Shown here piece after piece: positions 2,925-47,404 of a stretch of 64,000 nt of DNA; position 1 is the first letter of the stretch; every line of letters starts with the position of its first letter. The position numbers and the translations under genes were made by a program. Under the pieces are notes generated by a model. That model was not told the origin of the DNA. It searched no databases and saw only the letters and a list, made by a program, of their open reading frames with translations. Origin of the DNA: Nitrospirota bacterium (lineage in GTDB: Bacteria; Nitrospirota; Thermodesulfovibrionia; Thermodesulfovibrionales; SM23-35); NCBI GenBank assembly GCA_963826355.1, contig CAWGWX010000034.1, forward strand, positions 13,622 through 77,621, read 5' to 3'.

Positions 2925-3343
2925 ATGATTTTTAACGACACTTTTACAATAAATACGAAAGGTTTCTGTGATACCGTTGACATCACTGATAAGGTTATAA
3001 AAATCGTAGAGCAGTCAGGTATCGAAAACGGGCTGCTTACCGTCTTCTGTTCTGGTTCTACAGCAGCGATCACAACAATAGAATATGAACCAGGCGTCAT
3101 TAAAGACCTGCAAAGGGTTCTGGAGAAAGATTGTCCCATCAAACATCTCCCTATGAACATGACAAACGCTGGGGGGATGGTAATGGTTTTTCTCATGTGA
3201 GGGCAGCCCTGATGAAACCTTCCCTCTCAATTCCCCTCATAGAGGGAAAACTCTCACTGGGAACGTGGCAACAGATAGTCTTTATAGACTTTGACAATAG
3301 GGAGAGGCACAGAAAAATAGTCGTACAGGTTTTAGGAGGATAA
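2925..3343 (+). pseudogene. YjbQ-family (secondary thiamine-phosphate synthase) gene split by a frameshift
   Basis: N-terminal half in ORF 2925..3200 (GLLTVFCSGSTAAITTIEYEPG). C-terminal half in ORF 3131..3343 (YEHDKRWGDGNGFSHVRAAL...GTWQQIVFIDFDNRERHRKIVV). Adding one A to GAGAAAGA (about 3124-3130) fuses them. Confidence 0.75.
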
Positions 3344-3718: not shown

Positions 3719-4053
3719 ATGAAACTCTTCTATCTGAATAAAACTCCCTATGAACCGGTCAGCCATGATCCCGGGCTGAAAAAGCGGGTCCTCGCAAGGA
3801 TATTCTTCCCTCTGTAAAACATATCAGCCATATTATTCTTCGGCCAGGAGACAGCGCCTCTGAACATGCACATTCTGATTATGTTGAGGTGTTCTACTGC
3901 ATCCGGGGTGATGCAGTATTCTCGATAAAAGGGGAAAGCATTTCAATCAGGAAAGGGCATTTACTTTTTGTCGAGCCTGGAGAAATACATTCTATTCAAA
4001 AAGTGAACGAAGAAACAGAGCTTCTCTACTTGCATGTGATTGAAAAGAGTTAA
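3719..4053 (+). pseudogene. Cupin_2-type protein gene with a 1-nt frameshift
   Basis: MKLFYLNKTPYEPVSHDPGLKKRVLA, then a frame change to DILPSVKHISHIILRPGDSASEHAHSDYVEVFYCIRGDAVFSIKGESISIRKGHLLFVEPGEIHSI (cupin His motifs). Adding one A at GCAAGG (about 3794-3799) restores one 111-aa ORF. Confidence 0.65.
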
Positions 4054-4347
4054 GAGTTACTGTTGTTTATCAATTAGAAAGGAGGGAGAGGGGCCTCTGG
4101 GGTATGGAAGGCCCCTCAGGGGGGTAAAAAAGCTCTATCAAAAGAATCTTCGTTATAGATATCCTGATATAACCTGCTTTAATAATATGATAGGGGAAAA
4201 AATAAAGAATGAAAATCAGAATTTGTCTGATTTTTTTGTAGGAACTTGTCTCGTTGCTCTGTAGGTTTTTGTCTTACAATTTTCCTGTACTTCTATGATT
4301 TTATGTGACTTTTTGACTCATTGAATTCTGGAAATAACTTCTTACCG

Positions 4348-6305: not shown

Positions 6306-6460
6306 AAGTCACCTATCAGTTGTTTTGAATCTGAGTAATCGTGATTGCACTATGCAGTATAAAACGGAGATCTAAGGAATGATATCAGTAATAGTCTGAT
6401 AATCTTGTAGGAGTTTTACTCATTGCTCTGTAGGTATTTATCTCACCAGAGTAATTTTCT

Positions 6461-7874: not shown

Positions 7875-8051
7875 TTCCCCCTGACCTCTATGTGAAGGAT
7901 AGAACCTTTATTTTAAAAAGAGAAAGTCTTCTTGATTGCTACTTTATGTGAGTTTTAAGTGTAAGTAGTATACCATTTTTTGCAAGTCTATGTTGTCAAG
8001 GTATTTAACTGCAACACCAGCGTCTTTTCCGTTGGCTTTCCGTTTTTCTTC

Positions 8052-8090
8052 ACTTCAGTCCTTCTGTACTTCAGCTCTTCCTCACTTCAG
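8052..8090 (-). repeat. Minus-strand CTGAAGT x3 (16-nt spacing) array overlapping or following the stop codon of the upstream gene
   Basis: ACTTCAG on the + strand at 8052-8058, 8068-8074 and 8084-8090. The stop codon lies at 8087-8089. Confidence 0.5.
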
Positions 8091-8773
8091 CCCTTCTGCA
8101 TGAGCTTTTTCTCCCATGATACAGCTTTTCCATAATCTTTGAACAGCCGCTCCAGTTTTCGAAATACAGAGGTATGTACCGATCTCCTGCCGTTTTTCCT
8201 TTCCTCTTTCACAGCACTATGAAGCATTTCATGATAAACAACATACCTGATAAAGTAACGCGGGACATTTCTCCTGTCCAGGACGGGATTTATCCTTATG
8301 GTATCGCTATGTCCGCAGTAACTTCCCAACGTTCGATTCCTTACTGCCCTCCGTGCATTCCCTTTTCCCCAGCCGATCGACGCTGTTATTCTCCCTCCGA
8401 AATACTCATCATTGAGATCATCGAAAATCTCTCTCAGATTGTGAAATCTGCCCTTTGTGTGGATGCTGAGTTGTCTGGAGTTTTGCTCTCTCTTTTTCAG
8501 ACAGGTCTGATTTTCGCTGATAAATTTCCTGATGAGTGGTGTCAGGCATTTCCTTGTTTTAATGAAACTGGCCATCTCCCTGATGACTTCATCATCAGCA
8601 TTGAGAAACATCCAGTGCATTCTGACAGAAACCAAATTGCCTTTTGTTCTTATTGAAAGTACATTGGTAGAATTGTCTGTTAGGGTCAGAGAAACAGATT
8701 TCCCGGTCATCTTCTCTAAGGAATCCTTAAGGGTATCTTTGCTGTTGGAAAACTGCAAACTTAGTTGAAACAT
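8087..8773 (-). CDS. SprT-like / HExxH zinc-metalloprotease-domain protein
   Basis: 228 aa with YVVYHEMLHSAV (HExxH) preceded by IRINPVLDRRNVPRYFIRY. Family assignment rests on motif only. Confidence 0.55.
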   Translation of the reverse strand: MFQLSLQFSNSKDTLKDSLEKMTGKSVSLTLTDNSTNVLSIRTKGNLVSVRMHWMFLNADDEVIREMASFIKTRKCLTPLIRKFISENQTCLKKREQNSRQLSIHTKGRFHNLREIFDDLNDEYFGGRITASIGWGKGNARRAVRNRTLGSYCGHSDTIRINPVLDRRNVPRYFIRYVVYHEMLHSAVKEERKNGRRSVHTSVFRKLERLFKDYGKAVSWEKKLMQKG

Positions 8774-8803: not shown

Positions 8804-9428
8804 TCATAAAACAACTCTTCCGCTGTTTGATGCCTTCACCTCTTCCCCCTCCTTTCCCCTTATATCCACTCCTCTGTGCAGACTCATCCTCTTCATGTTG
8901 AGTATCCGCTTTGTACCGTAGGGAGCTAATATCTCATGTTCGAGGGGAAGTGTAAAGCAACCATCCCAGAGTCTATCAGATACTTTCTGAAATATAGATT
9001 TCAGTCTTCTTTCTTCTTTCTTCTTTCTTTACCCTCCTCAAGTTTTCGGTGCTCAATAACACTTCATCTTCAGGCAGGGTAATCTCCCGTGTTGGAAAGC
9101 TGATGTGTTTTACGACTATATCCATACGCTTTCTCCTCTTGCCTATTTTCAGGTTAACAGGATAGACACCCGGCTGGGTTTTCATTTCTACTGCTCCGAT
9201 AGCAATAAAACAACGCTCTTCACTTCGACTGGAATAAAAATTTTTCCCCATAAATGAAGCAGGAGACATCTTCGAGACCCTTGTGTTAGTCACCTTGATG
9301 ACAAAAGCATCTCCCGGGAAGACTTCATGAGGTGAAACCATGACTTCGAGGGCAAAAGAAATGTCACACAGAAAAAACACAAGAAATACCAGGGTGATAA
9401 AAAATAAAAGTATACTATGCCTTTTCAT
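8804..9428 (-). pseudogene. M23 (LytM) peptidase gene, frameshifted and 3'-truncated
   Basis: Signal peptide MKRHSILLFFITLVFLVFF plus an N-terminal domain typical of M23 proteins (ORF ending 8976). It continues in another frame as FTLPLEHEILAPYGTKRILNMKRMSLHRGVDIRGKEGEEVKASNSGRVVL*. That frame ends before the HxH half of the domain and abuts the start of the next gene. Confidence 0.6.
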
Positions 9429-9653
9429 ATGTGCTTCCTTTCTCAATGTTTCCACTTTAAATGTACATGATCTGATTCGAATTTCTGGAAGGGATAGAAT
9501 GAACTTTTCCCTTTCCGGTTTCAGAAAGAAATGACCTATTTTTGCAGCAACATCGTCTTCATGATTTTTCATAATTTCTTCATCGGCTCTTCACAAGTTT
9601 TTCGTATCCTAATCTCATAAATAACATGAATAACATGATAAAGGAGGCATGAT

Positions 9654-10948: not shown

Positions 10949-12793
10949 TTGAAGAAGAATCTTTATCAAAAAGGCATCAGCAGACGAAGATTTCTTAAGG
11001 GTACAATTGCTGCCGGGATTTGTTGCTCCGTCTTCCATCCTTTTCATCGCTTAGGAAAAGCTGCAGTGACTTTAGAGAACCCGATCTTCTGGATCAAGGA
11101 TATTTTCAACCAACCTTTTTATGATGGAGAGACCAGTAACAATCACATTGGGGTTGATTATCTCCTTAGCCTGATGGGAGAGTATGGATTGAAATTTTAC
11201 CGCTCTGTTCAAGAGACTGCACTCAGTGGTCCTTCAGGTATCATTGAGCCAATTGATGTCGTTTTAATCAAGGTAAATGCACAATGGAAGTACCGTGGCT
11301 GCACGAATAGTGATCTCATAAGGGGGCTGATCCAGAGAATTCTTGACCATCCTGATGGTTTCGATGGTGAGGTGGTGATTTTTGAAAACGGGCAAGGACG
11401 TGGAAGTCTCAATTGTGACACCACAGGGGGAAACTATCCGGATGCCTCTGTTCACGCCAATGCCAATGATGAAAGCCATAGCTTTCGTTATCTGGTAAAT
11501 GAGATTTTTAACGATCCCCGGGTTTCATCGTATTTACTGGATCCCATCAGAAGCACCTTTATCGGGCTCAATGATCATGTTAGCAATGGGTATCGGAAAT
11601 ATGAAAATGTTTCGTATCCTTGCTTTGCCACAGCAGGAGGCCATCGAGTAGAGTTACGTGAAGGCATCTGGCAAGGGAGTGGATACAGCCAGAATCTTAA
11701 GCTGATCAACGTCCCGGTACTTAAGTATCACGACAAAGGGGGATCAGAGATTACTGCATCTCTTAAACATACGTATGGTGTTGTTTCGATGTCTGATGGA
11801 CAAAGTGACTTCCGTCATTATAGTGGCCTGGGAGAAACCTGCGGAAAGATTATGGTTTCTGTCAGAACCCCTGTCTTGAATATCATAGACGCGATATGGG
11901 TTTCTTATTCTTCTCTTTTGGGATACCCTGCGAGTACAACCTATCGGGCTAACCAGATTTTGGCCAGCCAGGATCCTGTAGCCTTGGACTATTGGGCAGC
12001 AGCCTATGTCATGTATCCCATCAGCAAAAACCCTCGCCACCTTCCTGGCTTCCCAGGTATTGATCAATGGCTGACTAGTGCCCGCGATATCATTAACGAC
12101 CGAGGTGGTCTTTACAATTCAGAGAGCGGAGTCCTCGTTGATATGGTAACAAAGAATAAAAACGAGATGGTGGTTTATACAAAGAATGTGGCAGTTACCC
12201 TCCTTTCACTGAATGGGGGTGAGGTCATCGCGTCTGGCTCAACGTTCACTATTCAATGGGAGGCATCTTCTCAGGCAACAAAATTCAGGCTTGAGTATTC
12301 GTTGGACAATGGGCTGACATGGATACAAATACCAGGTGCAGATGATTTAACAGGCAATAGTTATGACTGGAGTGTACCTAAACCATGGGGTAACAAAAAG
12401 AAATGCCTTGTGAGAGTAATAAGATATGATGCTTCTGAAGTCAAGGTAGGCTCAGACAGATCAGATGCACCCTTTACCATAGAGGTAGTGAAATTGACAT
12501 CGCCAAATGGTGGAGGCCCTCCTCTTAAATCAAGTACGGAACATCCCATTACATGGGCAACAAATAGAACAAAAAATCCGGTTGCAAAAATTAAATTGTA
12601 TTACACTATTAATGGAGGAATTACCTGGAATTTAATAAAAACACTTAAAGGCAATCCTGGAAGTTATCCTTGGTTAGTTGTAACAGTTAAAAAGCCAAGG
12701 ACCGACTGCAAGATAAAGGTTGAGTTAAACGATGTTTCTGAGAACATATTGGGGACAGATGCGAGTGATGGTTACTTTACCATTCAGCCTTGA
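10949..12793 (+). CDS. Tat-signal DUF362-domain protein with the C-terminal tandem module shared with the S8 peptidase
   Basis: Twin-arginine motif SRRRFLKGTIAAG. DUF362-like core (DVVLIKVNAQWKYRG...VVIFENG). The C-terminal 200 aa are about 50% identical to 718-1305. TTG start inferred. Confidence 0.8.
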   Translation: MKKNLYQKGISRRRFLKGTIAAGICCSVFHPFHRLGKAAVTLENPIFWIKDIFNQPFYDGETSNNHIGVDYLLSLMGEYGLKFYRSVQETALSGPSGIIEPIDVVLIKVNAQWKYRGCTNSDLIRGLIQRILDHPDGFDGEVVIFENGQGRGSLNCDTTGGNYPDASVHANANDESHSFRYLVNEIFNDPRVSSYLLDPIRSTFIGLNDHVSNGYRKYENVSYPCFATAGGHRVELREGIWQGSGYSQNLKLINVPVLKYHDKGGSEITASLKHTYGVVSMSDGQSDFRHYSGLGETCGKIMVSVRTPVLNIIDAIWVSYSSLLGYPASTTYRANQILASQDPVALDYWAAAYVMYPISKNPRHLPGFPGIDQWLTSARDIINDRGGLYNSESGVLVDMVTKNKNEMVVYTKNVAVTLLSLNGGEVIASGSTFTIQWEASSQATKFRLEYSLDNGLTWIQIPGADDLTGNSYDWSVPKPWGNKKKCLVRVIRYDASEVKVGSDRSDAPFTIEVVKLTSPNGGGPPLKSSTEHPITWATNRTKNPVAKIKLYYTINGGITWNLIKTLKGNPGSYPWLVVTVKKPRTDCKIKVELNDVSENILGTDASDGYFTIQP

Positions 12794-14789: not shown

Positions 14790-15067
14790 AAGTGCAAGAC
14801 AAAGGCACCTTTTATAACATTCGCTAGGATAAAGAGATTAAAAAACATTTCTGTGCTGAATATCAAGATATTGAAAAGAATTTTCAATGCTGTGAGCATG
14901 GTATACCTTATATTATTATGGGGTTAAGACCTTATCCATCAAAATAAGGCTGATGTAGGAATAACACTTACAAAAAAATCAGATAAACACTGATATTTTT
15001 AAATATGACCAATGACTTAATATCTATTAAGTATAAGCTCTTATACTCCTAAGAAAGGAGGTATTCA

Positions 15068-29477: not shown

Positions 29478-30719
29478 ATGGCCAAAAAGGATGAGAGCTT
29501 ACCAAAATGTTCTTTCTGCGGTAAGGGGCATGATGAGGTAAAAAAGCTTATTGCAGGGCCCTCAGTTTATATATGCAATGAGTGCGTTACGCTCTGCAAT
29601 GAAATCATTGCAGATGCCTACCATGCGGGGGTTGAAGGTCCTGTTTTTCCAAAGCTTCCCACACCAAAGGAGATCCATCATTTCCTTGATGATTATGTTA
29701 TAGGTCAGGAGAGGGCGAAGAGGATACTTTCCGTCGCGGTATATAACCACTATAAGAGAATATACAGCCCCAGTAAATCAGAAGTAGAACTACAGAAAAG
29801 TAACATACTCCTGATAGGTCCTACGGGTACGGGTAAAACTCTTTTTGCCCAGACATTAGCCAAGGTACTTGATGTGCCTTTTGCTATAGCTGATGCAACG
29901 ACCCTCACAGAGGCAGGCTACGTCGGTGAAGACGTGGAAAATATCATTTTGAAGTTGCTCCAGGCGGCAGAATATGATGTTGAAAGAGCGCAGAGGGGCA
30001 TAGTGTATATTGATGAGATAGACAAGATTAGTAGGAAATCAGAGAATCCCTCAATAACGAGAGATGTATCAGGTGAAGGTGTGCAGCAGGCTCTTCTCAA
30101 GATAATTGAAGGCACCATGGCTAATATACCACCTCAGGGCGGAAGGAAACACCCGCAGCAGGAATTTATCCAAGTTAATACAACGGATATCCTCTTCATA
30201 TGTGGTGGTGCCTTTGTTGGACTTGAGGGCATCATTGAACAGAGGACAGGACAAAAAATAGTGGGGTTTGGTCATGATAACCTGACAAGAAAGGAGAAAA
30301 AGATAGGTGAGATCCTCAGTCTCGTTGAACCTGAGGATCTGATAAAATATGGTCTCATACCGGAGTTCGTAGGGAGATTGCCTATTGTAGCAACCCTCGA
30401 CGAACTCGACGAACCAGCCATGATAAAGATACTGACAGAGCCTAAGAATGCCCTTATAAAGCAGTATCAGAAGCTCCTCTCTCTCGATAATGTCAGACTG
30501 AGATTTACAGACGGTGCGCAATCGGCCATAGCAAAGAAGGCAGCACAACGAAAAACTGGTGCACGGGGGCTCAGAGCCATACTTGAAGAAATAATGCTCG
30601 ATGTAATGTATGAGATACCCTCTCAGAAAGGCATCAAGGAATGTGTGATAAATGAGGAGACCATCGTCAAAAATGAAAAGCCTATTCTTTTATACGAAAG
30701 GCATGCTGAGTCAGCATAA
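29478..30719 (+). CDS. clpX: ATP-dependent Clp protease ATP-binding subunit ClpX
   Basis: Zinc ribbon CSFCGK...ICNEC, Walker A GPTGTGKT, and [10 protein letters not shown]. Confidence 0.95.
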
Positions 30720-30750
30720 AAAAGTTAAAAGTGAGAAGTGAGAAGTTTTC
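30720..30750 (+). repeat. Heptamer-periodic purine-rich array immediately after the clpX stop
   Basis: AAAAGTT AAAAGTG AGAAGTG AGAAGTT, with AGT every 7 nt, four times. Confidence 0.6.
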
Positions 30751-30761
30751 ATGCGGAGTTT

Positions 30762-31214
30762 CTACAACCTTACTTTTGTCCTGTTTGAGGTAATCGCCTT
30801 TTCTATTGTCTTTATAACAGTTTCTCTGAGTTCTTCGTCGTCAATTTGTGAGACTGTCTTGTCTATATAGGATAGCTCTTCAGGAGTGAGTTTTTTGATT
30901 CTCATCCCTTTGCTGCTGCCCTCAGACTCTATCCTTTTTGAAACCTTGCCAAGCTTTAATCGTATATCCCTGATACCATAAGGACTCAATTTTTCTATGA
31001 TGTCCTTTTTTAAGTAGTTCAACTCCTGGAGCCAAACAGGTGAATCAACATTCAGGAGCATTTCTCCTTCGAATAACTTACATGGCGCTATATGGTATGA
31101 AAGAGGCTCATTGAATAAATTATGCCAGTTTTTTTTGATCTCCATGAGTCTCATACTGCTTTCGATCCCGAGGTCCTTAACGAGAGGGAAAAGTAAGAAA
31201 TCTGCCCTCTTCAC
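30762..31214 (-). CDS. DUF721 (DciA-like) protein
   Basis: 150 aa. The segment LMEIKKNWHNLFNEPLSYHIAPCKLFEGEMLLNVDSPVWLQELNYLKKDIIEKL is typical of DUF721. Confidence 0.65.
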   Translation of the reverse strand: MKRADFLLFPLVKDLGIESSMRLMEIKKNWHNLFNEPLSYHIAPCKLFEGEMLLNVDSPVWLQELNYLKKDIIEKLSPYGIRDIRLKLGKVSKRIESEGSSKGMRIKKLTPEELSYIDKTVSQIDDEELRETVIKTIEKAITSNRTKVRL

Positions 31215-31402
31215 TAAACTGCCTTCTTGACTCTACCAGAGCGGAGACATCTCGTACATACAGAGAGTCTCCTGACCCCGCTCTCAGTCATGATGCGCAT
31301 CTTTTGCAGATTAGGCATTATTACCCTTTTTGTCTTATTATTAGCATGGCTGACATTATTACCGATTGTCCTTTTTTTCCCACATAAAGCACAGATTGCC
31401 AT
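31214..31402 (-). CDS. rpmB: 50S ribosomal protein L28
   Basis: [34 protein letters not shown]... Confidence 0.9.
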
Positions 31403-31480
31403 TCTCTTCCTCCTTCTCTCATTGCATTAAACAAGTTTACTATGATAAAATTTTAAATGCAATAAGTGCACCATAACCAC

Positions 31481-31526
31481 ATGAGAAGTGAGAAAAGGCA
31501 GTAGCTTTCCATGTTCCATTTCTCAT
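31481..31526. repeat. Imperfect inverted repeat built from GAGAAGT-type units, upstream of infB
   Basis: ATGAGAAGTGAGAAAAGG-cagtag-CTTTCCATGTTCCATTTCTCAT. The outer 7 bp are perfect. Confidence 0.45.
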
Positions 31527-31549
31527 AGAGAGATAGGGGTTAACAATAA

Positions 31550-33847
31550 ATGCCGAAAATAAGAATTTATGAGCTTGCCAAAAAATTAGGAGTAACAAGT
31601 AAGGTTATCATTAGCGAGCTTTCAAAACTCGGTATAGAAGGGAAAGCGCATACTTCAAGTATCGAGCCCGAGTTGGCTGGAAATATTGAGGCTACATTAC
31701 TGAAAAAAGCTGTCAAACCGATAAAAGAAACTATCCCTCAAGAGAGCTCAGTAACCGAGGAAGTTGTGAGACCCCAGGTCGAAAAAGCTCCAGAGGAGCA
31801 TGGGGGAAAAGCAGTTACAATAGAGGGAAAGGAACCCGGAAGAGAAGGACGGAAAATACTTGTAATACCTGAAGAGGAAGAAGAATTAAAGGTTCCTGAT
31901 AGGTTCAAAAAAGAGATAGAGACAGAAAAGATTGAGAAGTTCAAGGCAAAACCAGGGATGCAGAAGGCTTTTCAGACAATCAGAAAGATAGAGCCCAAAA
32001 GATGGCATGAACAAAAACCATTAAAGAAGTTAGAAAAGATAAGACCTTTTCCAAAAGAAGAGCAGAAACCTCCTATCCATCTTGTCATTCCAAGAAAGAA
32101 GACACTGAAACTTCAGGAAGGCACTACGGTAAAGGAATTTGCAGAACTCATAAGTGTCAAACTCTCTGATGTTATAAAGAAATTCATGGAATTAGGATAT
32201 ATGCCAACAATAAACCAGCCTGTTGACCCTGACGCAGCCCTGTTAGTTGCGGAGGGTTTTGGAGTTAAGCTCGAGCTTTCATCTCTTGAAGATGATGCTG
32301 TTATCACAGAGGCACCAGAAGATATTGGTACATTATTACCGCGTCCTCCTGTTATAACCATCATGGGACATGTAGACCATGGAAAGACTTCCCTCCTCGA
32401 TGCAATAAGAAAAACAAAAGTTATCGAGACCGAAGCAGGAGGGATTACCCAGCATATCGGCGCATATAAGATTAATCTGAGAGGCAAAGATATTGTATTT
32501 CTCGATACGCCAGGTCATGAGGCGTTCACTTCTATGAGAGCAAGGGGGGCAAAGGTAACGGATATCGTTGTTCTTGTTGTAGCTGCAGATGATGGCGTCA
32601 TGCCGCAGACTGTTGAGGCTATCAATCATGCAAAGGCCGCAAATGTCCCGATCGTTGTAGCCATAAACAAGATCGACAAGCCAGAGGCGAATCCATCAAA
32701 GGTAAGGAATGAACTTGCAGAACACGGGATAATACCTGAGGAGTGGAGTGGACAAAACATCTTTGTTGAGGTATCTGCCAAAAAAGCTATAGGCATAGAA
32801 AGCCTCCTTGAGATGATACTCCTTCAGTCGGAGATAATGGAGCTTAAAGCCAACCCTGAGAAAAAAGCAAGGGGTACTATAATCGAAGCGAAACTCGATA
32901 GAGGGAGGGGACCTGTTGCAACGGTACTCGTCCAATCTGGAACCCTAAGGATTGGCGATACATTCCTTGCAGGTATTCATGTAGGAAAAGTAAGGGCATT
33001 GATCGACGATACAGGTAAAAGGATTACAGAAGCAGGCCCAACAACACCAGTTGAGGTAATCGGTTTTCCAGAGGTTCCCTCGGCAGGCGACATCTTTATC
33101 GCCGTCGATGACGAAAAGAGAGCAAGACAGATAGCCCTTGCAAGACAGCAGAAACAGAGACTTACTGATATGGCAAAGACGAGGAAGCTTACCCTCGATG
33201 AATTATATGCGAAGATAAAAGAGGGGGAGATAAAAGATCTCAACATTATTATTAAGGGCGATGTTCAAGGATCTGTTGAGGCACTAAAGGATGCCCTTGA
33301 AAGTATTACCCACACACAGGTGAAGGTTAGGGTCATCCATTCTTCTGTTGGTGGTATCAATGAGTCAGACATTATGCTCGCCTCTGCCTCAAATGCAATT
33401 ATCATAGGTTTCAATGTGAGGCCCGAGCCCAAAGCGTACCAGGCAGCAGAAAAGGAAGGCGTTGATGTCAGGCTTTATAACGTGATTTATGAAGCAATAG
33501 AAGATGTTAAAAAGGCACTTGAGGGTCTTCTCGAACCCACACTCAAAGAAAAAACCCTTGGAAGAGCAGAGGTCCGTCAGGTGTTTCCGATATCGAAGAT
33601 AGGAACGGTTGCAGGATGTTACGTGCTTGATGGCTCTATCAGCCGCTCAAGTGATGGTATGAGGATTAGTAGGGATAGCATTGTTGTATATGACGGTAAA
33701 ATCGGTTCCCTTAAAAGATTCAAGGAAGATATCAGAGAGGTACAAGCAGGATATGAATGCGGCATCCTGATCGAAAACTTTAATGATATAAAAGTTGGAG
33801 ACATACTCGAAAACTACATTATTGAGAAGATAGCAACAAAACTCTAA
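31550..33847 (+). CDS. infB: Translation initiation factor IF-2
   Basis: 765 aa. G-domain motifs [20 protein letters not shown] and NKID. Located upstream of rbfA. Confidence 0.95.
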
Positions 33848-33852
33848 ATAAG

Positions 33853-33932
33853 CTAAGAGTTGAGAGAGTTATGAGTTATAAGTTTAAAAACAACAATCCA
33901 CTTTCGACTCTTCACTTTCCACTTCTAACTTT
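33853..33932. repeat. Forward AGT-heptamer array, 11-nt spacer, then an inverted ACT-heptamer array between infB and rbfA
   Basis: Forward arm 33853-33886 has AGT at 9, 7 and 7-nt spacing. Inverted arm 33898-33932 has ACT x5 every 7 nt. The arms can form an imperfect hairpin with about 70% pairing. Confidence 0.6.
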
Positions 33933-33937
33933 GGAAT

Positions 33938-34297
33938 ATGCTTCCCTATAAACGTTCTCAAAGAGTCAGTGATCTTCTCAGGAGAGAGATAGCAGATATC
34001 ATTATCTATAGACTTAAAGACCCTCGTATCGGCTTTATAACAGTCACTGGGGTTGATGTTACAGACGATATTAAGATAGCCAGGGTTTATGTAAGCATTT
34101 TCCAAGATGAGGAGAGAAAGACTACACTTGAGATATTAAATTCTGCAAAGAGCTTTATACGGTCTGAGTTATCCAAAAGACTCAGGATGAAATTCATCCC
34201 GAGCATCGAGTTCAGGCTCGATACGTCAATCGAGTATGGAAGTAGGATTGAAAAGCTCCTGAAAGAGATCGAGGGGAAAGGTGAAGGTTCCTCCTAA
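33938..34297 (+). CDS. rbfA: Ribosome-binding factor A
   Basis: RSQRVSDLLRREIADIIIYRLKDPRIGFITVTGVDVTDDIKIARVYVS. Confidence 0.9.
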   Translation: MLPYKRSQRVSDLLRREIADIIIYRLKDPRIGFITVTGVDVTDDIKIARVYVSIFQDEERKTTLEILNSAKSFIRSELSKRLRMKFIPSIEFRLDTSIEYGSRIEKLLKEIEGKGEGSS

Positions 34298-35249: not shown

Positions 35250-35289
35250 AACTTTTCTTTCATAGATATCTTTAATTAATGGGACTAAA

Positions 35290-35409
35290 CCACTGACAAA
35301 GTCAGTGGTGGGGTGTGGGGGCGGAGGCCCCACCCCTTATATGTCCACCAACATTGTTGGTGGTTATCAAATAACTCCTCCGCTTAAAAGCCACCGACAA
35401 GGTCGGTGG
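35290..35409. repeat. Cluster of three covarying 8-bp hairpins plus a G/C-rich hairpin
   Basis: CCACTGAC-aaa-GTCAGTGG (35290-35308). GGGGTGTGGGG-gcggagg-CCCCACCCC (35310-35336). CCACCAAC-att-GTTGGTGG (35345-35363). CCACCGAC-aag-GTCGGTGG (35391-35409). The loop GCGGAGG is complementary to CCTCCGC at 35377-35383. Confidence 0.55.
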
Positions 35410-35435
35410 TAGTTTACTTATACCTGAAGAGAATC

Positions 35436-39081: not shown

Positions 39082-39596
39082 GGAAGATAACCTGTTGCTT
39101 CATCATGCTTTTTCTTTTATTACCCTTTGCAGGCTGCAAAAAAGAACAGGCTCCTGTAAAAAAACCGATGGCCGGGCAGGTTCAACCTCCACCGGCAACA
39201 CCGGAAGTAAAGAGCCCAGAAGAGACAAAGAAGGCCGAGCAGGAAATATATGTGTATGACGCAAAAGGGAAAAGGGACCCTTTCCTTTCTCTCGTAACGA
39301 TATTAAAACAGAAGCCAGAAAGGAGGAAGGGCTCGACTCCTTTTGAAAGCTACAGTGTCGATGAAATAAATCTTTTAGCAATTGCATGGGATAATCAAAA
39401 GTATTATGCCCTCATCATGTTGCCTGATAAAAAGTCGTATACGATTACGGAAGGGATGAAATTGGGACTCTATGGAGGGAAGGTACAGAAAATAACTAAG
39501 GATATGGTGGTAATCAGGGAATACATGAAAGACTATAAAGGCGATCTTAAACCAAAGGATTCAATATTGAAACTCCGTAAAGAGGAGGGAGGATGA
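39078..39596 (+). CDS. pilP: Pilus assembly lipoprotein PilP
   Basis: Lipobox LLLPFAGC, the motif GKRDPF, and its position between pilO and pilQ. Confidence 0.7.
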   Translation: MRKITCCFIMLFLLLPFAGCKKEQAPVKKPMAGQVQPPPATPEVKSPEETKKAEQEIYVYDAKGKRDPFLSLVTILKQKPERRKGSTPFESYSVDEINLLAIAWDNQKYYALIMLPDKKSYTITEGMKLGLYGGKVQKITKDMVVIREYMKDYKGDLKPKDSILKLRKEEGG

Positions 39597-41756
39597 AACT
39601 CATAGTAAAGGAAAAGAAGCGAAAAGCTAAGAGCAAGCAAAGAGCGAAAAACAAATGGCAATACTCTAAATCAATTCTTTTATACTCCATGATGCTATGC
39701 TCTCTGCTCTTTGCTCTCTATGGTTGCGCAACAACAGGTGATGCTAAAGAAACTACACAGCCTGAAAGAACTCCTGTAATAACCGGAATAGATCTTCAGG
39801 ATTATTCAGTAACGATAAAGGTTAGTAAACCTTTTAGTTACACCATGTACAGGCCAGAGGACCCTTATAAAGTTGTCGTTGAACTTCTTGATGTTAACAT
39901 GGGTGCTTTTAATATGAAGATCATTTCTGATAAGGCAGGAATAACCGAGATCGTTCCCTACCAGATTGAGTCACCTTTTATGACAAGGCTCGAAATACTG
40001 CTTCAGACGCCTACTACAGCTGAACCAGAGTATAAAGACAATGCACTGAAAATCAGGATAAAAGAATCACCGAAAGAAGTAACAAAAGCAGAAATAATGA
40101 AAGCAAAGGAAGAGGTATCAGAAACAAAAGAACCCGAACCTGTTATGCCTGAAGAGAAACAGCTTCCAAAGGCTACAGAGATAACCAGTATCTCCTTCGA
40201 AAGGTCAGCTGACATCGTCAAAGTCCTTATTAAAGGTAATGGATCTATGAATCCAAATGTTTTACCTTTAGATAATCGCATCGTCATAGACGTTCCTGAT
40301 GTAGATATGAAAGCTCAGATTCCAGAGTCAGTGGTATCACCATTAAAAAGTATCAGATCAGGGAAACATGATAACAAGATACGATTAGTCCTCGATCTCA
40401 AAGAAAAGACAGATTTTGATGTCACAACAATCGGAGACACCCTTGTCGTAGCCCTATCAACTCTATCAGTACCAATTTCTCAGAGGTCTGAAGAAAAGAT
40501 AGAGGCTGCAGAATCCATGCCGGGTTCAGAAGGTAAATATACCGGCAAAAAGATATCTCTCGATTTTCAAGATGCTGATATCGTTCCGATATTTAGGTTA
40601 CTTTCTGATATTAGTGGTTATAACATCGTCGTGAGTCCTGAGGTCAAAGGTAAATTAACAATGAAGCTCATCAATGTGCCCTGGGATCAAGCACTCGACA
40701 TAATATTGAAGACCTTCAGCCTTGGGAAGACTGTTGAAAATAACATCATAAGGATTGCACCCTATAATGCTTTTGCTAAAGAGATGGAAGAGGCAGTAAA
40801 GTCAGTGCCCTTAGATACTAAAATATTTCACATCAGCTATGCCGATGTATCTAATATAGAGAAGTCCATAAAAGATGCAAAGATACTTTCATCAAGAGGA
40901 AGCATTAGCGTTGATAAAAGGACAAGCTCCGTGGCCATTAATGATGTAGAAGCAGTTTTCCCGCAAATCGAAAATCTCCTTTCAACCCTCGATACACCAA
41001 CACCCCAGGTAATGATAGAGGCAAGGCTTGTTGAGGTGAATACATCAGATGTCAGCGCTTTGGGAATTCAATGGGGAGTAGCCCACGAAGCGGGAAGTAA
41101 ACCATTTCAGGGGAACGTAAACCTAGGTAAAGGAGCCTTTACAGGGAAGAACTTCATGGTTGACTTCCCAGCGAGCTGGGGCGGGCCCTGGCGCTGGTGC
41201 TGGATTTGCTATCGGAATTCTGGATACTACAAGGACGATGGGGCTTGATCTGCAGCTCTCTGCACTTGAGAGACTTGAGAAGAGTAAGATAATTTCTACC
41301 CCTCGGATCGTTACTACAGATAATGAAAAAGCTTCAATAATGCAGGGAACAAGTGTACCTTTTCCCAAAGTAGACGTGCAATCGGGTCAAATATCGGTTG
41401 AATATAAAGATGTTGTTATTCTCATAGAGGTAACACCCCATATAACCCCCTCCGGAGCTGTCACTACGTTAATTTTTGTGAAAAAGGAAGATGTCATACG
41501 TGAAACCTCAATTGGCGGTAATCCGGTTCCCGTTACTTCTAAAATAGAGGGAAATACAAAAGTTCTCGTGCAGACTGGAGAGACTATCGTTATTGGTGGA
41601 CTCTTAAAGAAGACAGAGAAGGAAAACACTTCAGGTGTTCCAGGTTTGATGAATATTCCTATTCTTGGATGGTTATTTAAGACCAAAGGGACTTCTGAAG
41701 AAACAAGCGAGCTTTTGATATTCATTACGCCGAGGGTTTTGGAGAAAACAATATGA
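39593..41756 (+). pseudogene. pilQ: Type IV pilus secretin PilQ, interrupted by a +1 frameshift in the secretin domain
   Basis: AMIN-like N-terminal repeats. The secretin core is split between ORF 39593..41248 (..NFMVDFPAS) and ORF 41160..41756 (GAGPGAGAGFAIGIL...LSALERLEKSKIISTPRIVTTDNEKASIMQG...LLIFITPRV). The shift site lies between 41127 and 41248, probably near GCGAGCTGGGG (41171-41181). Confidence 0.85.
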
Positions 41757-42391
41757 TTTCTCCTGTTGTGAATGCGTTCACGTATCTTACTAGATGAACT
41801 GAACGCAAGAATAATCAATACCTGAAGGCAATTTTTTAGAGTAAAAAACAAAAATATATGTCCCACCTCCGATTTCTTACCGCTGGTGAATCCCATGGGA
41901 GGGCGCTTATAGGAATTCTTGAGGGCATTCCCTCCGGGCTTTCTATTTCTGTAGAGGATATTGACAGAGACCTCAAAAGAAGACAGTCAGGTCATGGTCG
42001 CGGTGCTCGGATGAAGATAGAGTCTGACCATGCTGAGATCCTTTCAGGAGTGAGGTGGGGAAAAACAATAGGTTCTCCCATAACTCTTTTTATTGAAAAT
42101 AAAGACTGGAAGAACTGGCAGGATGTAATGTCAACGGAGTTCGTCAGTCTGGGCCAGAAGAGTTCGGGAAGTCAAGATCCCAGAATGGAAATCGTCACCC
42201 GTCCACGCCCTGGCCATGCAGACTTAGCAGGTGCCATAAAGTATAGCCAATATGATTTAAGAAATATTCTTGAACGCTCAAGTGCCAGGGAAACGGCAAT
42301 GAGAGTTGGCCTTGGCGCACTTGCAAAAAAGTTTCTTTTGGAATTTAGGATTAAAGTTGGTAGTTATGTTATCCAGATAGGCAAAATCAAA

Positions 42392-42426
42392 GTTCAAACT
42401 TCAAACTTCAAACTTCAAAGTTCAGG
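42392..42426 (+). repeat. Heptamer tandem array (N)TTCAAA x5 inside aroC (in frame; encodes VQTSNFKLQSSG)
   Basis: GTTCAAA CTTCAAA CTTCAAA CTTCAAA GTTCAGG. Confidence 0.85.
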
Positions 42427-42741
42427 AAAAATACTATTATCTCTGTTCGAAAAGGCAGAAAGGTCACCGGTCAGGTGTCCGGATGAAGAGATTTCAGCAA
42501 AGATGACCAAGCTGATAGACAAGGTAACCAAAGATGGGAATTCCCTTGGAGGTATATTTGAGGTCTTCGTAACAGGTGTCCCCATAGGTCTTGGAAGTCA
42601 CATGCAATGGGACAAAAGGCTCGATGGAAGGCTTGCACAGGCGCTCATGGGCATCCAGGCAATAAAAGGAGTTGAGACCGGTATCGGTTTTGAGATAGCA
42701 AGACGCTTCGGCTCAGAAGTTATGGATGAAATATTTTATAC

Positions 42742-42769
42742 TCAGGAGTCAGGAGTCAGGAGTCAGGAG
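42742..42769 (+). repeat. Perfect heptamer tandem array (TCAGGAG)x4 inside aroC
   Basis: Four exact copies (28 nt). The reading frame differs on the two sides of the array. Confidence 0.9.
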
Positions 42770-43143
42770 GTTTCTATAGAAAAACTAACTATGCTGGTGG
42801 GATAGAAGGTGGTATGACGAACGGAATGCCCATAATTATGAGAGCAGCAATGAAACCCATACCTACCTTAAAGAGACCTCTTCGATCTGTTGACATCATA
42901 ACAAAAAAGCCTGTAGAAGCAGCCTATGAACGTTCGGACATCTGTGCAGTACCTGCAGCAGGAGTAATAGCAGAGGCGATGATTGCCCTGATTATTGCAG
43001 ATGCCTTCCTCGAAAAATTCGGCGGGGATAGCATAACCGAAACAAAACGTAATTACGACTCCTATATTGAGTATATAAAGAAATTTTAGGTTCTTCTCCT
43101 CATTAGTTTTACAAAGGGGATTATCGTAATTAATTTTTGGCTC

Positions 43144-43176
43144 GAACCCTTTAACCCTTAAATCCTTGAATCCCTA
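43144..43176 (-). repeat. Octamer-periodic array directly after the aspS stop (minus strand)
   Basis: Minus strand reads GGGATTCA AGGATTTA AGGGTTAA AGGGTTCG. The aspS stop is at 43181-43183. Confidence 0.55.
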
Positions 43177-43180
43177 TTTT

Positions 43181-44977
43181 CTAAGGCAGGTCTGTCTTTA
43201 TAGAAAGCTCTTTCAGTTGTTTTGGCTCGACTTGAGACGGGGTGCCGCTCATAAGGCATGATGCCTTCTGAGTCTTCGGGAAGGCAATTACATCCCTGAT
43301 GGACGTTGCATCAACCATAATCATTACAAGCCTGTCAAGACCAAGCGCTATCCCTCCATGGGGAGGTGCGCCAAATTCGAAGGCATCCAACAAAAAGCCG
43401 AACTTTATTCTCGCTTCTTCTTCTGATATCCCAAGAATCTCGAACATCTTTTTCTGGAGATCACGTATATGGATACGGATGCTCCCGCCTCCTATTTCAT
43501 AGCCATTGAGAACAATATCATATGCTTTTGCCTTTACCTTCGTTAAAAGTCTGAAATCAGAGGTTTCAGGCTTAAGGTTAGCAATACTTACCGAGGAGAG
43601 CTTATCTATGTCCTCGTCCATAGGTGAAGTAAAAGGATGGTGCATTGCTTCGAACCGGCCTTCATCTTTATTCCATTCAAAGAGCGGGAAATCTGTAATC
43701 CAGACAAACTTATATCCCGACCTTATCAGATTCAATCTCCTTCCAAGTTCAATTCTCATCCTGCCTAAAACATCATGAACGACCTTCTCTTCATCAGCAA
43801 CAAAGAGCATCAAATCCCCTTCTTCTGCCTCAAGCATCCTAGCCATTTCTTTCATTATGTCTTCATGGAAAAACTTTGCTATGGGGGATTCAAAACCATT
43901 TTTCACTTTAATCCATGCAAGTCCTTTTGCACCAAAAGACACAGCTTCTTCTGTGAGCAAGTCTATCTCTTTCCTTGAAAGGGCTGCCAAGCCCTTTCCG
44001 TTAATCGCCTTAACTCTTCCACCAGCTTGAAGGGCTTCTAGGAATACGCGGAATGAACCCTTCTCTGACAGGTCAGCCATATCCTTGAGTTCGAGGCTGA
44101 ATCTCAAATCGGGCTTATCAGTGCCAAACCTTTCCAGAGATTCGTGAAAGCTCAATCTTTCAAAAGGTGTCTCGATCTCGACCTCAAGGACATTTCTGAA
44201 GAGCCTTTTCATCATGCCTTCTATAACATCTATAACATCCTCTCTATCTGCAAAAGACATCTCAAGGTCAACCTGTGTGAATTCAGGCTGTCGGTCTGCT
44301 CGGAGATCTTCATCTCTAAAACACTTCACAATCTGGAAATACTTCTCAAAGCCAGAAACCATCAATATCTGTTTGAAAAGTTGTGGTGACTGAGGTAATG
44401 CATAAAAATATCCAGGATTCAAACGGCTTGGAACGAGATAGTCTCGTGCGCCTTCAGGGGTGGATTTCGTGAGTACAGGTGTCTCAATCTCGAGAAATCC
44501 TTTCTCATCAAGATAATCCCTGATAACCTTGGTAGCCTTATGTCGTATCATTAAATTTCTCTGCATTTCTGGTCTTCTTAAATCAAGATACCTATATTTG
44601 AGTCTCAGTGCTTCTGAGGCATCGCCGGCATCTTCTATATTGAACGGCAAAGGAGCCGCCTTATTTAAGATTTCGAGTGAAGTTGCATACATCTCGACTT
44701 TGCCTGTTGGAATATGAGGATTTTCTGTACCCTCAGGCCTTTTTCTGATCTCACCTGTTACAGAGACTACATATTCAGTTCTCAGTTCATGTGCAAGTTC
44801 GTGTGCCTTTGGTGATTTTTCAGGGCTAAAGACCACCTGAAGTATTCCGCTTCTGTCACGCAGATCCACAAATATGAGTCCTCCGTGATCTCTCCGTCTG
44901 AAAACCCATCCGCAGAGGTTCATATCTCTTCTTATATCTGATACTTTTATCTCACCGCAACCTTTATCACGAATCAT
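43181..44977 (-). CDS. aspS: Aspartate--tRNA ligase
   Basis: 598 aa with class IIb motifs: [37 protein letters not shown] and [12 protein letters not shown]. Confidence 0.95.
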
Positions 44978-45985: not shown

Positions 45986-47404
45986 TTATTGTTTTTTCCA
46001 TGAGGTTACAAATGTCTGAAGGCCTTCGGTCTTTGTTATTTTTGCAGATAGAGTCTCAGCCGTTTCCCTGTTGCTGAATTTGCCCGTCCATACCTTATAG
46101 AGCCTTCCCTCCTTTTTTGATTTTGACGAGGTTATATAGGTATGATATCCCTTTTTATCAAGTCTTTTCTTGAGGGACTTTGCATAAGAGACATCGGTGA
46201 AGGCACCCACCTGGACTGTAAATATCGCCTGTGAGGGTTTCTGGGATTGTGAAAGTTTTATTTTTGTTTTTTCAGTGGTCTCTGCCTTTTCACTTTGTGG
46301 TACAGCTTCTTGAAGGGGGGTAGAGGTCTGGGCTCTAACCTCTCCAGGAGATTTTTCCGCCAAAATTGATTCTTGAGGTGGAGGAGAAGCTTGTGATTGA
46401 ACCTGTTTAGTCAATCTTTCGTTTTGAACGAAGGTCCTTAAGGATTTAATCTCAAGACTTTTATTTAATGAGCTTTTCCAAGCAAAATAACCAACTATAA
46501 GACTCGCTAAGACCGTGACGAATATGGCTGAAATGATAATGCCAATAGAGGTTGATTTATTCCTTACAATGTTTCTCTCCCCTATTGGTAAATCTGCTGT
46601 CTTTATTTCTCTTTCTATAAATAAGTCTGTTTCCAGTTGTTCTTCCTCTAGCATAGCTGATGTTTCTGGTTTCTCGCTTTCTCGCAATATCTCAGACTCC
46701 TTCCCATCCAAGGACTTTTCCCGTTCTCCATGCTTTTCTATCACTTCTTCTATAGAAAATCTCACAGGTTGTTCTGAAACCATCTCTTTATCATGGATAC
46801 CCTCTTTTATCCAGCCATGTTTGGGACAGAAAACCCAACCAGATTTCTTGAAATCCTCTTTTCTCTTTCCATATTTCTCAATCTGTTTATTGCAAATGGT
46901 GCAATACATGGTTCTATCTGTTGCTTTATTCATGTCGTCTTTTAGTTCCTTTTCTAGCATAGCTGATGTTTCTGGTTTCTCGCTTTCTCGCAATATCTCA
47001 GACTCCTTCCCATCCAAGGACTTTTCCCGTTCCCCATGCTTTTCTATCACTTCTTCTATAGAAAATCTCACAGGTTGTTCTGAAACCATCTCTTTATCAT
47101 GGATACCCTCTTTTATCCAGCCATGTTTGGGACAGAAAACCCAACCAGATTTCTTGAAATCCTCTTTTCTCTTTCCATATTTCTCAATCTGTTTATTGCA
47201 AATGGTGCAATACATGGTTCTATCCCCCGTCATACTCTTATCGTTTTGTGATGCTTTTTTCTCTATCTCCTTTTTGAATCTATCCGGACCCTTTGACTCT
47301 TCTTCCTCAGGAGTGAACGATGCTTCTGATCTCTCCATTTCGGAAAGTGTCTCCGGCTCGTTTTCTGCTAAAGGATTTTCCTGTTCTCTATGTTCTTCTT
47401 GCAC
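45986..47404 (-). CDS. SPOR-domain membrane protein with a duplicated zinc-ribbon module
   Basis: C-terminal SPOR domain (IFTVQVGAFTDVSYAKSLKKRLDKKGYHTYITSSKSKKEGRLYKVWTGKF). One TM segment. Two near-identical copies of CTICNKQIEKYGK...WVFCPKHGW units. Confidence 0.75.
   Translation of the reverse strand: MQEEHREQENPLAENEPETLSEMERSEASFTPEEEESKGPDRFKKEIEKKASQNDKSMTGDRTMYCTICNKQIEKYGKRKEDFKKSGWVFCPKHGWIKEGIHDKEMVSEQPVRFSIEEVIEKHGEREKSLDGKESEILRESEKPETSAMLEKELKDDMNKATDRTMYCTICNKQIEKYGKRKEDFKKSGWVFCPKHGWIKEGIHDKEMVSEQPVRFSIEEVIEKHGEREKSLDGKESEILRESEKPETSAMLEEEQLETDLFIEREIKTADLPIGERNIVRNKSTSIGIIISAIFVTVLASLIVGYFAWKSSLNKSLEIKSLRTFVQNERLTKQVQSQASPPPQESILAEKSPGEVRAQTSTPLQEAVPQSEKAETTEKTKIKLSQSQKPSQAIFTVQVGAFTDVSYAKSLKKRLDKKGYHTYITSSKSKKEGRLYKVWTGKFSNRETAETLSAKITKTEGLQTFVTSWKKQ
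46648..47224. repeat. Direct tandem duplication, period 306 bp, inside the SPOR gene
   Basis: 46648-46918 and 46954-47224 are identical at 270/271 positions. The only difference is T 46727 versus C 47033, which is synonymous. Confidence 0.9.

Follow-up and report, generated by a model that had tools for sequence, protein, structure and literature searches.

Short heptanucleotide arrays near gene ends in a Nitrospirota genome are probably labile tandem repeats

Introduction

Several stop codons in a 64,000-nucleotide stretch of a Nitrospirota genome (contig CAWGWX010000034.1 of assembly GCA_963826355.1; the whole stretch is referred to here as the window) are followed by short purine-rich arrays in which a fixed trinucleotide recurs at a strict spacing of 7 or 8 nt, and the locus raises the question of whether these arrays form a new signal at gene ends. 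The original prediction described them as a single organisation tied to stop codons, with units that differ from gene to gene and an inverted array facing some of them. The sequences that it quoted, from the 3′ ends of clpX and infB, the 5′ side of rbfA, aspS, the SprT-like gene, the cupin-like and DUF1059 genes, the region upstream of infB and pilQ, all lie where it placed them.

Based on the analysis presented here, we conclude with a probability of roughly 0.6 that the arrays are heptanucleotide repeats generated by slippage or tandem duplication, comparable to long simple sequence repeats (LSSRs) and to the short tandemly repeated repetitive (STRR) sequences of cyanobacteria, and kept where selection is weak. 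Duplications that include a stop codon would explain the arrays that start there, and two of the cases have perhaps become arms of RNA hairpins secondarily.

Results

The whole window was searched for strict arrays, defined by the original prediction's own measure as one trinucleotide occurring at least four times at strict spacing, and the counts were compared with those in shuffles that preserved dinucleotide composition within 50- or 100-nt blocks. Six strict period-7 arrays were observed against 1.0-1.2 in the shuffles, and none of 200 shuffles reached six. Similarly, Tandem Repeats Finder (TRF) returned 12 period-7 rows against 2.4±1.6 in shuffled sequence (0 of 60 shuffles). Strict period-8 arrays numbered two where 1.0 was expected, which is not significant. 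The proposed periodicity of 7-8 nt is thus borne out for period 7 (6 vs about 1.1) and not for period 8, and an excess over shuffled sequence is likewise seen for period 7 and not for period 8, for the single units or for the pair of arrays at pilQ that are described below. No exact motif is common to the arrays, since GAAGTGAG occurs five times in the window against 2.8 expected and is not enriched; the degenerate pattern RARAGTKRRRAGTK is enriched, though it was derived from the same data.

The period-7 signal extends to relatives. In 127 kb of related Thermodesulfovibrionales loci, period 7 is the most frequent period with 10 arrays, and every other period accounts for 0-5, whereas the prevailing periods in 78 unrelated bacterial loci (1.33 Mb) are the coding ones of 6, 9 and 12, with period 7 found 2.6 times per 64 kb. 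Together these counts show that the heptamer periodicity is real and somewhat enriched in this lineage. Six of the 12 TRF period-7 rows in the window fall in non-coding DNA, which makes up 18% of its length, and the coding period-7 arrays lie in a variable loop of aroC, in a linker of the DciA-family gene (dciA) and in a C-terminal protein tail.

Orthologous loci recovered from metagenomes and metagenome-assembled genomes (MAGs) at graded distances allowed the arrays to be followed between genomes. L081 is 98.4% identical to the window at the nucleotide level, L086-88 are about 92% and L082 about 88% identical, and L084, L085, L089, L090, L091, L093 and L094 are more distant. One such series is found between clpX (29478-30719, + strand) and the convergent dciA (30762-31214, − strand), where the array AAAAGTT AAAAGTG AGAAGTG AGAAGTT (30720-30747, + strand) fills most of a 42-nt spacer. 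This spacer is 28 nt long without an array in L089 and L090, 35 nt long with three units (AAAAGTT AAAAGAG AGAAGTT) in L086-88, and 42 nt long with four units in the window and L081; within it the window and L086 are set apart by a single indel of one 7-nt unit, AAGTGAG. The dciA linker of L082 (10287-10318) contains a further AGT-heptad array, AGTTAGG AGTCCAA AGTCAGA AGTCGAG AGTC, of which the window has a degenerate version of equal length.

Similar turnover is seen at other loci. The period-8 array after the stop of aspS (43181-44977, − strand) has the units GGGATTCA AGGATTTA AGGGTTAA AGGGTTCG (43144-43176, − strand) and lies in a 91-nt spacer shared with the convergent aroC; its four units in the window compare with three in L084 (67-nt spacer) and none in L085 (spacer of about 10 nt). 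In L083 a heptamer array, GTTCACT x4, lies inside aspS itself (11407-11433). At the end of the SprT-like gene (8087-8773, − strand), a tandem duplication with a 16-nt sub-period in a 32-nt unit (8038-8100, − strand; TRF score 68) starts with CAGAAGGGCTGAAGTG and consists in the window of two 32-nt copies, each beginning with the last codons of the gene and its TGA; CTGAAGT recurs three times at 16 nt. L093 has a single copy, and the array is missing from L094 and L095. In L091, loss of the first stop lets translation read through the first copy, and the protein tail is 8 aa longer. A 7-nt duplication, AAGAGTT AAGAGTT (4045-4059, + strand), spans the TAA stop of the cupin-like open reading frame (ORF) in the same manner. 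The comparison of related genomes that the original prediction had proposed therefore gave a presence/absence pattern: close relatives lack the arrays, have shorter ones or carry other sequence instead, and the arrays thus do not behave as a conserved gene-end signal. Judged from these alignments, they appear to be young and labile and to change by whole units.

The best heptamer arrays of the window are not found after a stop codon and instead lie inside aroC (chorismate synthase, 41858-43089). The first is a near-perfect array of TCAAAGT/TCAAACT with 5.4 units (42387-42424, + strand) and is in frame. The second is a perfect array of four TCAGGAG units (42742-42769, + strand), whose length of 28 nt causes a frameshift, so that the gene is divided into ORFs 41858-42805 and 42814-43089, on which positions 1-252 and 261-327 of the Pfam Chorismate_synt profile fall, respectively. 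The corresponding array of L084 has five degenerate units, measures 35 nt and is in frame, and L085 has a different array, AGAGCAA/AGAGCTC, at the same protein loop. The split aroC could be a pseudogene, a phase-variable allele or a collapse in assembly. A third coding array, TCTTCTT on the + strand and AAGAAGA on the coding strand (9000-9029, − strand), encodes the K/E-rich C-terminal tail of ORF 8976-9572 at 24-53 nt from its stop. Hence, of the six strict heptamer arrays, three are located in coding sequence (CDS), two in aroC and one in this tail, and with the dciA linker of L082 and aspS of L083 such arrays sit in CDS on either strand.

The association with stop codons was then measured across the window. 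Across the 3′ flanks of genes (n=41) the purine fraction averages 0.51 and is symmetrically distributed, against 0.557 in coding strands, and only about 4 of the 41 flanks are strongly purine-rich. The lag-7 autocorrelation of the flanks is 0.289 against a background of about 0.27 (standard error about 0.012). These values rule out both a general purine-richness and a general 7-nt periodicity of 3′ flanks. The placement of nine unbiased intergenic arrays (period 7, 8 or 16) was tested for closeness to a stop codon, with a combined p=0.008. Without the cupin and SprT arrays, which both overlap the stop codon itself, the value became p=0.35. The association is modest and not a rule, and it exists because the repeat units of some arrays contain the stop codon. 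The claim that arrays start right after stops is accordingly retained at the level of p=0.008 and lost once the stop-overlapping arrays are set aside, with half of the strict arrays inside CDS.

The idea that differing units share one organisation tied to stops did not hold, as the cases assembled under it are heterogeneous and comprise heptamer repeats, 3′-end duplications, sequence coding for a signal peptide and chance units. Of these cases, clpX and infB-rbfA are true heptamer repeats. The units that occur singly behind the stops of the cupin and DUF1059 genes, which were labelled from their translations only, are by frequency alone not distinguishable from chance, and this includes TAAGTGAGAAGAAGG after the DUF1059 stop (1759-1773, + strand).

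Arrays at different loci nevertheless resemble one another. AGT or ACT repeated at least three times at 7-nt spacing forms 10 runs at seven loci of the window against 0.8 expected, and the rate is 0.5 per 64 kb in the 78 unrelated loci; none was found in about 103 kb of more distant Thermodesulfovibrionales loci. The likeness of arrays between loci exceeds what composition predicts (pairwise z-scores of 6-10). For example, the clpX array is identical at 21 of 26 positions to the reverse complement of the array 5′ of rbfA, and therefore could pair with the rbfA initiation region. The duplex predicted between the clpX 3′ array (30720-30750) and the rbfA start region (33894-33945) has −24.4 kcal/mol (z=−4.8 vs shuffles), and that of the cis purine arm with the rbfA start region is weaker at −19.4 kcal/mol.

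Among all sites, only two look like RNA structure when folded, namely a hairpin in the infB leader and a 15-bp stem between infB and rbfA. Upstream of infB (31550-33847, + strand), an imperfect hairpin (31481-31526, + strand) has a purine-rich 5′ arm, ATGAGAAGTGAGAAAAGG, and a pyrimidine-rich 3′ arm, TTTCCATGTTCCATTTCTCAT, with a predicted energy of −16.1 kcal/mol (z=−4.36 vs dinucleotide shuffles). L082 and L086 retain it despite sequence changes, and the alignment of relatives contains one pair with double changes. The 3′ arm has an alternative pairing with the Shine-Dalgarno (SD) region GAGAGATAGGGG. In L089 and L090 the purine arm is missing and the pyrimidine tract and purine-rich SD region are kept, and thus the purine array looks like a recent addition that competes for the pyrimidine tract. 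Across 31500-31549 the pyrimidine tract CCAUUUCUC has two possible partners, the purine array upstream of it and the SD region GAGAGAUAGGGG, and this alternative pairing may act as a switch for translational control of infB.

In the spacer between infB and rbfA (33938-34297, + strand), a degenerate purine-rich array follows the infB stop (33853-33886, + strand; AGT at 9/7/7 spacing) and forms the 5′ arm of the intercistronic stem. The 3′ arm is a pyrimidine-rich array (33898-33932, + strand) in which ACT occurs five times every 7 nt (33900-33930) and which ends 5 nt before the rbfA ATG. The SD of rbfA is weak (GGA) in the window and absent in L081 and L082. These arrays are present only in the window, L081, L082 and L086; the spacers of L085 and L090 are unrelated, measure 62 and 80 nt and carry other small hairpins. 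RNAalifold on the four genomes gives a consensus 15-bp stem with a 5-bp inner hairpin (33850-33917, + strand), in which 33850-33866 pairs with 33901-33917. Its 20 pairs include seven one-sided, wobble-compatible changes and one broken pair, and L082 has lost two further pairs through a 2-nt deletion. No double compensatory change was seen among the four genomes, and single-sequence folding of the spacer gives z=−1.34. The consensus suggests that the stem is a real structure. A Rho-utilisation site was also considered for the array 5′ of rbfA; C-rich, G-poor 40-nt windows are common (36 merged stretches in the window), and therefore this assignment is not distinctive.

The remaining arrays do not fold beyond expectation. 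The clpX array folded with the dciA 3′ end gives z=−0.46 against dinucleotide shuffles, the aspS-aroC spacer z=+0.63 on the − strand and +2.03 on the + strand, and the region downstream of the SprT-like gene (7960-8092) z=+0.43. Intrinsic terminators were rejected at the clpX, aspS and SprT arrays, where z ranges from −0.46 to +2.0, no U-run follows a stem and a consensus scan found none. This agrees with the earlier view that the arrays, which lack a U-tract and fold no better than shuffles, are not classical terminators. Canonical terminators are not enriched in the region (24 vs 17±4.6 expected). The arrays were also correctly separated from repetitive extragenic palindromic (REP) elements, as a repeat search of the window finds no dispersed family that matches them. 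At the gathering threshold, Rfam reports tRNA-Leu alone in the whole window, and 30600-34100 has no match up to E=1.

The periodic pair at the pilP/pilQ junction, AGC on one side and GCT on the other, had been counted as an array and is better explained by the protein. This stretch (39609-39720, + strand) of pilQ (39593-41248, + strand) encodes the lipoprotein signal peptide MKLIVKEKKRKAKSKQRAKNKWQYSKSILLYSMMLCSLLFALYGC and is not an array element. The PilQ N-terminus has a positively charged, K/R-rich n-region that is purine-rich in the DNA, a hydrophobic L/F/A h-region that is pyrimidine-rich, and a lipobox, LYGC, with its Cys. The periodicity arises because the n-region needs purine-rich codons and the h-region pyrimidine-rich codons. 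Relatives carry in-frame indels here (+3 nt in L082 and −21 nt in L085), and the stretch folds with z=−1.19. Further downstream, pilQ is frameshifted at 41160-41250, giving ORFs 39593-41248 and 41160-41756. Relative to L081 and L082 the window carries one extra base at about 41173-41176, bordering a hexamer repeat of the GCTGGC type (TRF 41175-41203), and in L085 the gene is also called in two pieces. A UPF0047/YjbQ-like gene (2925-3343) likewise appears as two overlapping ORFs, 2925-3200 and 3131-3343, with a 1-nt frameshift near 3120-3150. That aroC, pilQ and this gene are all broken within 64 kb suggests either assembly indels or real decay.

The clpX, infB, rbfA, aspS, SprT-like, pilQ and DciA-family genes were confirmed by Pfam. 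Immediately upstream of infB, on the minus strand, is the L28 gene rpmB, as read from the sequence and backed by the gene calls of relatives. The best match of InfB among species-representative genomes is a Thermodesulfovibrio MAG (L001) with 64% amino acid identity, and the nearest AspS, DciA and SprT homologues are Thermodesulfovibrionales or Nitrospirota by name. A contig search with InfB was dominated by matches to its universal GTPase motif and yielded one distant relative, L001, which is GC-richer, is without arrays and has a different synteny after infB. An exact-protein look-up with RbfA and the C-terminal aroC fragment matched no record.

Several other repeats were noted in the window. 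A 141-nt insertion at 35277-35417, absent at that site in L081, L082 and L086, contains three similar hairpins (CCACTGACAAAGTCAGTGG, CCACCAACATTGTTGGTGG and CCACCGACAAGGTCGGTGG) and a G-rich palindrome; from its sequence it looks like a small mobile element resembling a miniature inverted-repeat transposable element or a REP, distinct from the arrays. A 306-bp tandem duplication with copies 95-99% identical (46639-47244) lies inside ORF 45986-47404 (472 aa). The syntenic SPOR-domain gene of L083 and L084 encodes 370 aa, and thus the duplication looks recent. A segment of 54 nt in the infB N-terminal region (31874-31927) is 85% complementary to 47255-47308 on the other strand, near the 5′ end of the SPOR-domain gene, so that both encode a similar acidic and lysine-rich peptide; the match is also found in L081 and L082. 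Finally, a 63-nt intergenic repeat at 4215-4277 and 6384-6446 (78% identical; also inverted at 14969-14997) begins with a hairpin, ATCAGA...TCTGAT, followed by a T-run, and looks like a dispersed element resembling a classical terminator.

Discussion

How would such arrays come about? We infer that arrays gain or lose whole units, and neighboring units become alike, through slipped-strand mispairing or tandem duplication at the site, and that point mutation would then blur an array until a fixed trinucleotide at strict spacing remains. Units whose length is not a multiple of three would persist where they cost little, in spacers between convergent genes, 3′ untranslated stretches, last codons and variable loops or linkers, and the arrays there may be selectively neutral. 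A duplication that includes the stop codon would leave the protein unchanged, since translation would still terminate at the first of the two stops. The purine-rich look of the arrays has a simple source, as coding strands in this genome are 55.7% purines. Where a purine array faces a pyrimidine tract, as in the infB leader and the infB-rbfA spacer, the transcript would form a G-U-rich hairpin, which was possibly co-opted as a leader or intercistronic structure.

A number of observations weigh against this explanation. The indel spectrum between relatives overall is not dominated by multiples of 7, and the clpX-dciA spacer of L082 is 53 nt long, a difference of 11 nt and not of 7 or 14. At the first aroC array, L085 has a non-repetitive segment of equal length, and the dciA linkers of L082 and the window differ in their array without a change in length; both cases need homogenisation or compensating events, and thus point to homogenisation within arrays and not to simple gain or loss. 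The AGT/ACT core common to several loci is not predicted by independent slippage of random seeds. In the infB-rbfA stem, pairing kept through seven wobble-compatible changes in four genomes hints at selection. The material examined comprises 64 kb of the source genome and about 130 kb of relatives.

The simplest alternative is that nothing exists beyond low-complexity, purine-loaded short spacers and that the periodicity was picked by eye. It explains the single units and the pilQ pair trivially and fits the lack of enrichment of period 8 and of GAAGTGAG, a lag-7 autocorrelation over all spacers that is near background, and the roughly 4 of 41 3′ flanks that are strongly purine-rich. For period 7, however, it is already largely refuted by an excess that 0 of 200 and 0 of 60 shuffles reach, by the perfect four-unit and near-perfect 5.4-unit arrays in aroC, and by the exact one-unit length differences that separate relatives, and overall we consider it improbable. 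Somewhat less improbable, though still unlikely, is that the arrays are RNA cis-elements at gene ends, with G-U-rich hairpins serving as terminators without a U-tract, attenuators, processing sites or 3′ stabilisers. The infB leader hairpin (z=−4.36) kept in L082 and L086, the 15-bp infB-rbfA stem kept in four genomes through wobble-compatible changes, the G-U pairs that favor the transcribed strand and the lack of enrichment of canonical terminators (24 vs 17±4.6) are all consistent with such a role. L085 and L090 carry different hairpins in the infB-rbfA spacer, and therefore the stem-loop itself may be the conserved feature. On the other hand, the clpX, aspS and SprT arrays fold no better than shuffles or worse (−0.46, +0.63, +2.03 and +0.43), the infB-rbfA stem has no double compensatory changes, arrays are missing or shorter in close relatives, the best ones lie inside aroC and Rfam has no match to them.

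Because plain slippage does not predict the common core, readings based on protein binding or RNA pairing are retained at low probability. By analogy with known oligomeric regulators, the heptads could be a multi-site platform for an RNA- or DNA-binding protein that would contact one AGU/AGT per subunit every 7 nt and regulate mRNA fate or translation. Such a platform would fit the distribution of the core, which occurs at seven loci where 0.8 would be expected, was not seen in 103 kb of more distant relatives and is seldom encountered in unrelated genomes, as well as arrays that are alike across loci (clpX vs rbfA reverse complement, 21/26); TAACTGA repeats have also been proposed as a protein-binding site (PMC4679880). 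It is at odds with arrays that occur in both orientations to transcription and inside CDS, with units and copy numbers that turn over between genomes 87-98% identical and with sites of only 3-5 degenerate units, and no candidate binding protein was found; we regard it as the most doubtful of these proposals. Little more credible is the speculation that RRAGTN heptads are a young, lineage-restricted family, on a par with the STRR and TAACTGA repeats and their ACT/AGT core, generated or recognised by a dedicated factor, forming complementary modules for post-transcriptional control in which purine arrays of 3′ untranslated regions would pair in cis or in trans with pyrimidine arrays of leaders. 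The clpX 3′ array and the rbfA initiation region are the example offered for pairing in trans.

Repeats formed by slippage or tandem duplication thus remain our preferred explanation, and with it the supposed new gene-end signal is removed as a false lead. What the loci do show, among genomes with 87-98% identity, is the birth of arrays and their growth one unit at a time. One such array breaks or varies a housekeeping gene, aroC, and others build arms of mRNA hairpins. For annotators of Thermodesulfovibrionales MAGs, it is important to realise that split genes and odd spacers can stem from slippage of 7-nt repeats.

Comparison with known systems places the arrays among heptamer repeats. Oligomeric regulators such as HutP, which reads UAG-N4 and thus a period of 7, and TRAP, which reads GAG/UAG at a period of 5-6, recognise one trinucleotide repeated at short, strict intervals with the bases in between left free, as in the arrays. 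Unlike the sites of HutP and TRAP, the arrays have an AGU/ACU triplet, occur on both strands and inside genes, and are not linked to any regulated operon. 'I-shaped' terminators and intercistronic stabiliser stem-loops are gene-end hairpins without a U-tract. The infB-rbfA stem is similar in that it directly follows a stop and has no U-run, but most arrays fold no better than shuffles and are not conserved between close relatives.

The original prediction named cyanobacterial heptamer STRRs as the nearest known thing, which our results support at the level of type. The STRR units are reportedly CCCCAGT, TTGGTCA and CAACAGT, found as exact units genome-wide and in longer arrays. The arrays described here are similarly tandem heptamers at many intergenic sites, and two of the three STRR units contain AGT. 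In contrast, the units of the present arrays vary by locus, the host is not a cyanobacterium, and none of the three STRR units occurs twice in tandem within the window. In a literature search, no paper was found that links heptamer repeats to Nitrospirae.

The properties of heptanucleotide LSSRs fit the arrays more generally. As summarised in PMC4679880, Mrazek et al. (2007) described heptanucleotides as the most abundant class of long simple sequence repeats with units of 5-11 nt in most prokaryotic genomes, a point also noted in PMC4692102, and polymerase slippage tied to the polymerase footprint was proposed as their cause. The arrays share the excess over chance (tested here in 64 kb), copy numbers that differ by whole units, depletion from CDS or placement at tolerant positions, and head-to-tail 7-nt units for which slippage is proposed. 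Compared with LSSRs as they are portrayed in that summary, the arrays are short (3-5 units), mostly degenerate, have an AGT/ACT core common to loci and belong to a Thermodesulfovibrionales-like Nitrospirota host.

Sets of TAACTGA direct repeats were described in marine Beggiatoaceae, some Cyanobacteria and Bacteroidetes (MacGregor 2015, PMC4679880). They are mostly intergenic sets of 2-6 units, some of which overlap the stop of the upstream gene and a few of which lie inside ORFs near protein ends, and a post-transcriptional role has been proposed for them in addition to protein binding (PMC4679880). TAACTGA repeats consist of one exact heptamer placed mostly a few nt upstream of start codons, whereas units here vary and placement is mixed; only the rbfA 5′ array is close to a start codon, and the others follow stops or lie in CDS. 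In the window TAACTGA has six single occurrences and none in tandem. As the exact STRR and TAACTGA units are never in tandem here, the arrays are not members of either family. The TAACTGA unit does contain ACT, and the two kinds of repeat have in common small intergenic sets, overlap with stop codons and occasional sites in ORFs. The closest specific analogue of the arrays is the TAACTGA direct-repeat sets.

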